Part shown: positions 17,983-18,762 of the stretch, piece by piece | Layout of the letters: every line of letters starts with the position of its first letter | How positions within the stretch are numbered: the stretch's first letter is position 1 | Assembly: GCF_055900595.2 (NCBI RefSeq) | Contig: NZ_CM148325.1 | Length of the DNA stretch: 64,000 bases | Reading direction: 5' to 3' (one strand) | The notes under the pieces: generated by a model | Told to the model about the DNA's origin: nothing | What the model saw: only the letters and a program-made list of their open reading frames with translations | Database searches by the model: none | Made by a program: the position numbers and the translations under genes

Positions 17983-18762
17983 ATGACGATGAATTCATTC
18001 GAGCGAAGGAATAAGATCATCCAATTAGTGAATGAACAGGGAACCGTGCTTGTTCAGGATCTGGCGGGAGTTTTTGCTGCCTCGGAAGCGACAATCCGTG
18101 CCGATTTGCGCTTTCTCGAACAAAAAGGCGTGGTTACGCGCTTTCATGGCGGTGCGGCGAAAATAATGTCCGGTAATAGTGAAACCGAGACCCAGGAAGT
18201 CGGGTTTAAAGAGCGATTTCAGCTCGCCAGCGCGCCGAAAAACAGAATAGCGCAGGCGGCAGTCAAAATGATCCACGAAGGGATGACCGTTATTCTCGAC
18301 AGCGGAAGTACGACAATGCTTATCGCCGAAGGTTTAATGACCGCCAAAAATATCACGGTGATTACCAACAGTCTCCCAGCGGCGTTTGCCCTTTCCGAAA
18401 ATAAAGACATTACTCTGGTCGTCTGTGGTGGCACGGTCCGCCATAAAACGCGCTCGATGCATGGCTCCATTGCCGAGCGTTCATTGCAGGATATTAATGC
18501 CGATTTAATGTTTGTCGGTGCTGATGGTATTGATGCGGTTAATGGTATTACGACCTTTAATGAAGGTTATTCGATTAGCGGTGCGATGGTCACAGCCGCT
18601 AATAAAGTGATTGCCGTTCTCGATTCATCGAAATTTAACCGTCGCGGTTTTAATCAGGTACTGCCAATCGAAAAAATTGATATTATTATTACTGATGATG
18701 CCGTGTCAGAGGTGGATAAACTGGCATTGCAGAAAACACGGGTGAAATTAATTACGGTGTAG
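17983..18762 (+). CDS. gatR: DeoR-family repressor of the gat operon, uninterrupted
   Basis: 259-aa continuous ORF with N-terminal HTH; no IS sequence inside. Confidence 0.85.
   Translation: MTMNSFERRNKIIQLVNEQGTVLVQDLAGVFAASEATIRADLRFLEQKGVVTRFHGGAAKIMSGNSETETQEVGFKERFQLASAPKNRIAQAAVKMIHEGMTVILDSGSTTMLIAEGLMTAKNITVITNSLPAAFALSENKDITLVVCGGTVRHKTRSMHGSIAERSLQDINADLMFVGADGIDAVNGITTFNEGYSISGAMVTAANKVIAVLDSSKFNRRGFNQVLPIEKIDIIITDDAVSEVDKLALQKTRVKLITV

Follow-up and report, generated by a model that had tools for sequence, protein, structure and literature searches.

The locus at the 3' end of the gat cluster raises the question of whether the galactitol repressor gene gatR, a pseudogene in E. 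coli K-12 MG1655, is intact in the E. coli strain studied here, and whether the gat operon of this strain would be regulated rather than constitutive. The window, meaning the whole stretch of 64,000 nucleotides that was analyzed (contig NZ_CM148325.1, assembly GCF_055900595.2), contains gatR together with the complete set of gat structural genes.

The repressor mechanism of GatR and the constitutive phenotype of MG1655 caused by IS3E are established, and have been known since Nobelmann & Lengeler 1996 according to the passage of PMC9189660 that cites that work. Later work tested the role of GatR by replacing the allele (PMC5850726), and this role is likewise established. GatR is a DeoR-family repressor with an N-terminal helix-turn-helix (HTH) and a C-terminal sensor of the sugar-phosphate type. 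Encoded at the 3' end of the gat cluster, it is predicted to bind operators at the gatY promoter and to repress gatYZABCD in the absence of galactitol or of its phosphorylated derivative, the presumed inducer. In MG1655 the insertion at codon 100 cuts most of the sensor domain away from the HTH, leaving the operon constitutive.

The gatR reading frame and its product

A single open frame of 259 codons with an ATG start occupies positions 17983-18762 on the plus strand, and its translation contains zero internal stops. The preliminary description had reported a continuous 259-aa ORF. Its continuity was borne out by the single uninterrupted frame and by identity at 257/257 residues with GatR from both E. 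coli HS and the reconstructed K-12 gene. A hidden frameshift or premature stop was ruled out, since the product is identical to these two independent references. The length of 259 aa is correct for the maximal ORF, which begins two codons before the annotated start, but not for the accepted product, which is annotated at 257 aa. The second ATG (17989) is the start in both the PGAP annotation and the curated MG1655 record b4498. RefSeq places WP_001295426.1 at exactly the equivalent of 17989-18762 in M160133 and E400634. A strong Shine-Dalgarno sequence is absent at both candidate ATGs (17983 and 17989), either of which may be the true start.

The gene is situated between gatD (16843-17883) and yegS (18844-19743, minus strand) and is convergent with the latter. 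The order fbaB-gatY-gatZ-gatA-gatB-gatC-gatD-gatR-yegS, with yegS on the minus strand, matches that of MG1655, HS and M160133. The same protein accession is annotated in M160133, E400634, EC10, elppa4, M114 and E. coli HS. The coordinates of gatR, its domains and the other features are collected in Table 1.

Table 1. Positions of gat features and Sib RNAs in the window.
Feature	Position	Strand	Description or basis
gatY promoter/operator region	12380-12513	+	Alignment to K-12
TGTCGTTT inverted repeat	CATATTGTCGTTT 12422-12434; AAACGACAGGATG 12496-12508		Brackets the gatY promoter-proximal region
gatYZABCD, presumed GatR target	12514-17883	+	Six uninterrupted genes; ORFs, M160133 annotation, per-gene K-12 comparison
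gatD-gatR intergenic region	17884-17988	+	105 nt
gatR CDS as annotated	17989-18762	+	257 aa plus stop; ORF list, translation, RefSeq CDS WP_001295426.1
HTH_DeoR, N-terminal DeoR-type helix-turn-helix DNA-binding domain	18004-18162	+	Residues 6-58 of the 257-aa GatR
DeoRC, C-terminal DeoR sensor (effector-binding) domain	18235-18696	+	Residues 83-236 of GatR
IS3E target site GAC, duplicated either side of IS3E in MG1655	18285-18287	+	Unoccupied here; junctions read directly
SIB_RNA (Rfam)	35911-36053, 36239-36381, 36567-36710

GatR shows the complete DeoR-family architecture. The N-terminal domain matched Pfam PF08220 (HTH_DeoR) with E = 1.3e-16 and 60.5 bits against a cut-off of 21. The C-terminal domain matched PF00455 (DeoRC) with E = 2.5e-51 and 174 bits against a cut-off of 31.8, covering profile positions 5-159 of 160. 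Residue numbers for both domains count from the second ATG (17989). A sequence search of the PDB found no GatR structure; the best match among solved chains was 7l6l_A, the C-terminal domain of DeoR (residues 83-254, E = 1.9e-11).

The same two-domain architecture is found in DeoR, GlpR, SrlR, AgaR and UlaR, which are distant paralogues of GatR with other operons and effectors. The PGAP product name, 'DeoR/GlpR family DNA-binding transcription regulator', is generic, and would also suit a reading of the ORF as SrlR, GlpR, AgaR or a similar family member. Such an identity is exceedingly improbable and was refuted by two observations. The protein is 100% identical to both fragments of b4498, which is named 'DNA-binding transcriptional repressor GatR' in MG1655, and in both strains the gene sits between gatD and yegS.

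Nine gatR alleles spanning the identity range were compared. pS was 0.08-0.14 and pN was at most 0.0034, and 46/49 variable sites were third positions; gatR is therefore under strong purifying selection.

The MG1655 gatR::IS3E locus and the frequency of intact gatR

In the MG1655 record NC_000913.3, gatR (b4498) is a two-piece pseudogene of 299 nt plus 475 nt (774 nt) with IS3E in between. The element spans 2170171-2171428 (1258 bp) and carries insE5/insF5. The possibility that K-12 gatR is intact was ruled out, as IS3E is both annotated and directly seen in this record. The split of the MG1655 gene by an IS3 insertion, as given in the preliminary description, is thus confirmed by the annotation and by the junction reads, which show the element to be IS3E. 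The disruption is also stated in bioRxiv 10.64898/2026.01.05.697630 and, citing Nobelmann & Lengeler 1996, in the relevant passage of PMC9189660. One sentence of PMC5850726 names the MG1655 element 'IS1', where the genome record has IS3E.

Alignment with the K-12 gatR region had been proposed as the check on the intact frame. BLAST of the window gatR against MG1655 returned two pieces with a 3-nt overlap in the window and a 1258-bp gap in K-12 corresponding to IS3E, and no frameshift was found in the window gene. The insertion point follows nucleotide 299, in codon 100, within the sensor domain. Removal of IS3E and one GAC copy turns the K-12 gene into the counterpart of the window gene at this locus, with the same protein. 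Between the rejoined K-12 gatR (774 nt) and the window gene there are 16 nucleotide differences, all of them at third-codon positions and synonymous, and therefore the two proteins are identical.

A second gat gene distinguishes the two strains. MG1655 gatC is a frameshifted pseudogene of 1358 nt (7922-9279 of the compared MG1655 stretch) versus 1356 nt in the window, so two gat genes are defective in the MG1655 reference, beyond gatR alone. The window has neither the IS3E insertion nor the gatC frameshift.

The window was 96.4% identical to MG1655 over 9709-18287 and 93.6% identical over 18285-19867. These values, the absence of IS3E and the intact gatC agree with the preliminary description, which held that the window is not from MG1655. 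The intact gatR alone cannot exclude a K-12 origin, because gatR is undisrupted in the K-12 strain NCM3722 (PMC3045373); it is the nucleotide divergence that excludes it.

The frequency of intact gatR was surveyed in 5426 complete E. coli genomes. A gatR match was present in 5109/5426 and absent in the other 317/5426. Contiguous gatR, defined as one match over at least 80% of the gene, so that point-mutation pseudogenes would count as contiguous, was found in 4756/5426 (88%), and 353 genomes gave only a partial match. The K-12 gatR::IS3E junction was detected in 345 genomes using a 120-bp probe with coverage of at least 80%, which explains almost all of the 353 partial matches. Among the matches listed, junction carriers are laboratory K-12 derivatives such as ER1709, K1508 and TOP10. 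The interrupted gatR is essentially a trait of the K-12 laboratory lineage. It does not extend to all K-12, because NCM3722 is undisrupted. Records at least 99% identical over gatR numbered 22-23. With 88% of complete genomes carrying it, intact gatR is normal for the species and so no distinguishing feature.

The constitutive galactitol phenotype of MG1655 is then a peculiarity of one laboratory lineage, and the window strain appears to have the species-typical regulated gat locus. Intact gatR is useful as a strain marker. It also calls for caution in extending MG1655 gut-colonization results to natural isolates, since the adaptation of MG1655 there begins with gat mutations.

Regulation of the gat operon

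The function of the window allele can be judged from E. coli HS. The window GatR is identical to HS GatR (WP_001295426.1), as checked by translation of the 257-aa protein. HS has the identical gatD-gatR intergenic region and the same gatD/yegS position, and the two gatR genes differ by 16 synonymous nucleotides. When the pseudogene of MG1655 was exchanged for the gatR sequence of HS, the gat operon came under regulation again, and new IS insertions in gatR then produced constitutive mutants once more (PMC5850726). Expression of gat is higher in MG1655 than in NCM3722, a difference put down to the gatR disruption (PMC3045373). In the mouse gut, LF82 and CFT073 benefited from CRISPRi silencing of gatR (bioRxiv 10.64898/2026.01.05.697630), which fits an active repressor. 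The same preprint obtained no gatR CRISPRi signal in MG1655, because IS3E already breaks the gene there.

With a probability of roughly 0.93, we consider the CDS at 17989-18762 to be a wild-type functional gatR whose product represses gatYZABCD and keeps galactitol catabolism regulated. Because GatR is the HS allele, the structural genes are intact and the region upstream of gatY is nearly identical to that of K-12, we infer with good support that gat expression in the window strain would be regulated (inducible). Inducible rather than constitutive expression had been predicted beforehand, and the HS-identical protein (PMC5850726) and the intact gatYZABCD argue for that prediction at the same strength. 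In the gut, clinical strains that have an intact gatR may remain repressed, as the CRISPRi preprint suggests (bioRxiv 10.64898/2026.01.05.697630), so the term 'inducible' may depend on conditions.

Per-gene comparison with K-12 showed that each of the six gat structural genes is full-length with a single terminal stop. Their sequences represent a more divergent allele, ∼96.4% identical to the K-12/HS type, and each structural protein has 3-16 residue differences from K-12 (16 in GatZ and 7 in GatD, for example), compared with zero in GatR. Substitutions of this number could be deleterious and make galactitol unusable for reasons outside gatR, in which case the intact repressor would have no phenotypic effect; the recurrent loss of gat function in gut evolution (PMC5850726) points in the same direction. 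We felt this to be very unlikely given that all six genes run to their proper stops and that related genomes carry these alleles with annotation as normal proteins. The gene-level comparison also gave no sign of a loss of catalytic residues.

In the ∼130 nt upstream of gatY there are 2 SNPs relative to K-12, and larger differences are present only in the distal REP elements. One SNP converts an in-frame ATG at -6 in K-12 to GTG in the window (12508-12516). The other is a T in K-12 and a C in the window at approximately -72 from the ATG, within the promoter/regulatory region. The fbaB-gatY spacer is 316 bp in the window versus 307 bp in K-12. What looked like a deletion of 81 bp from the gatY promoter region was rejected as an artefact of M160133 coordinates in light of these spacer lengths.

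The inverted repeat listed in Table 1 may provide candidate GatR half-sites, CATATTGTCGTTT and AAACGACAGGATG, and both copies are unchanged relative to K-12. The core of the repeat, the 8-mer TGTCRTTT, was considered as an operator word but was not enriched over the whole window (7 found versus 5.7 expected), and so the repeat remains a lead only.

The spacer preceding gatR is strongly conserved. Seven alleles that diverge by 8-14% at gatR synonymous sites show 0-1 differences in the spacer, and the stretch is identical in HS and K-12 as well. A 9-bp GC-rich hairpin at 17889-17911, just 3' of the gatD stop, has a predicted stability of -21.1 kcal/mol (z = -2.6). Scans of the spacer for a consensus sigma-70 promoter and for an intrinsic terminator gave no candidates, and an Rfam scan detected no RNA family within or adjoining gatR. 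The spacer presumably holds the gatR translation signals and possibly a promoter of its own. It is doubtful, although conceivable, that it is a conserved cis-regulatory element instead of a mere spacer, acting either as a processing/stability site or as an autoregulated gatR promoter/operator that would set repressor dosage.

These regions bear on whether the gatR ORF could be intact while regulation is altered, the operon being constitutive or non-inducible through an operator or promoter SNP or through poor gatR expression. The 2 SNPs upstream of gatY, the lack of a consensus gatR promoter in the spacer and the apparent failure of clinical strains with intact gatR to de-repress in the mouse gut (bioRxiv 10.64898/2026.01.05.697630) could all be read this way. 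We nevertheless regard altered regulation as quite unlikely. HS and the window share a gatD-gatR intergenic region at 100% identity, and it is the HS gatR segment that restores regulation. In addition, the candidate operator repeats match those of K-12, and gatR is under strong purifying selection. A functional GatR with a regulated operon thus remains the preferred reading.

The gat haplotype and other features of the window

Eight genomes (E400634, E500002, E600003, AST85, Z0117EC0005, E200086, 100117 and 100248) were 100% identical to the window over 1-12300; they form a small clade, seven from humans and one from a dog. Elsewhere E400634 departs from the window: it carries an inserted IS421, and its HEAT-repeat gene is split. 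M160133 was 95.8% identical to the window upstream of 12259 and 99.9% identical from 12302 onward, and this jump suggests that recombination had a boundary within the fbaB-gatY REP cluster. Positions 12259-12302 look like a recombination breakpoint bordering the divergent gat haplotype, judging from the alignments. One REP element of the cluster scores as naRNA4 in Rfam (12228-12298). The divergent gat allele might reflect selection that maintains alternative galactitol-utilization haplotypes in gut E. coli.

Several other segments differ from the reference strains. Approximately 2.3 kb (1987-4273) lie between rcnR and the thiM TPP riboswitch, where M160133, K-12 and HS have ∼90 bp. Small minus-strand ORFs in this segment are 2098-2412 (annotated as 'outer membrane protein' in E400634), 2422-2769 (hypothetical) and 3823-4062 (HTH-like). 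A Pfam search with ORFs 2098-2412, 2422-2769 and 4031-4369 gave zero matches.

The K-12 P2-remnant genes ogrK and yegZ (cryptic prophage PR-X) are missing at 20548-20895. The gap is flanked by cyaR (20895-20980, minus strand) and by a yegR-like ORF (20226-20543) that is only ∼87% identical to K-12 yegR. A gene for a 466-aa HEAT-repeat protein (22630-24030, minus strand) is found between trhP and yegP; it has no counterpart gene in K-12 MG1655 or HS, and is represented by two CDSs in the near-identical E400634. Finally, three tandem Ibs toxin/Sib antitoxin RNA modules occupy 35767-36710. HS has two Ibs genes at the corresponding array, and in E400634 the array contains IS421.
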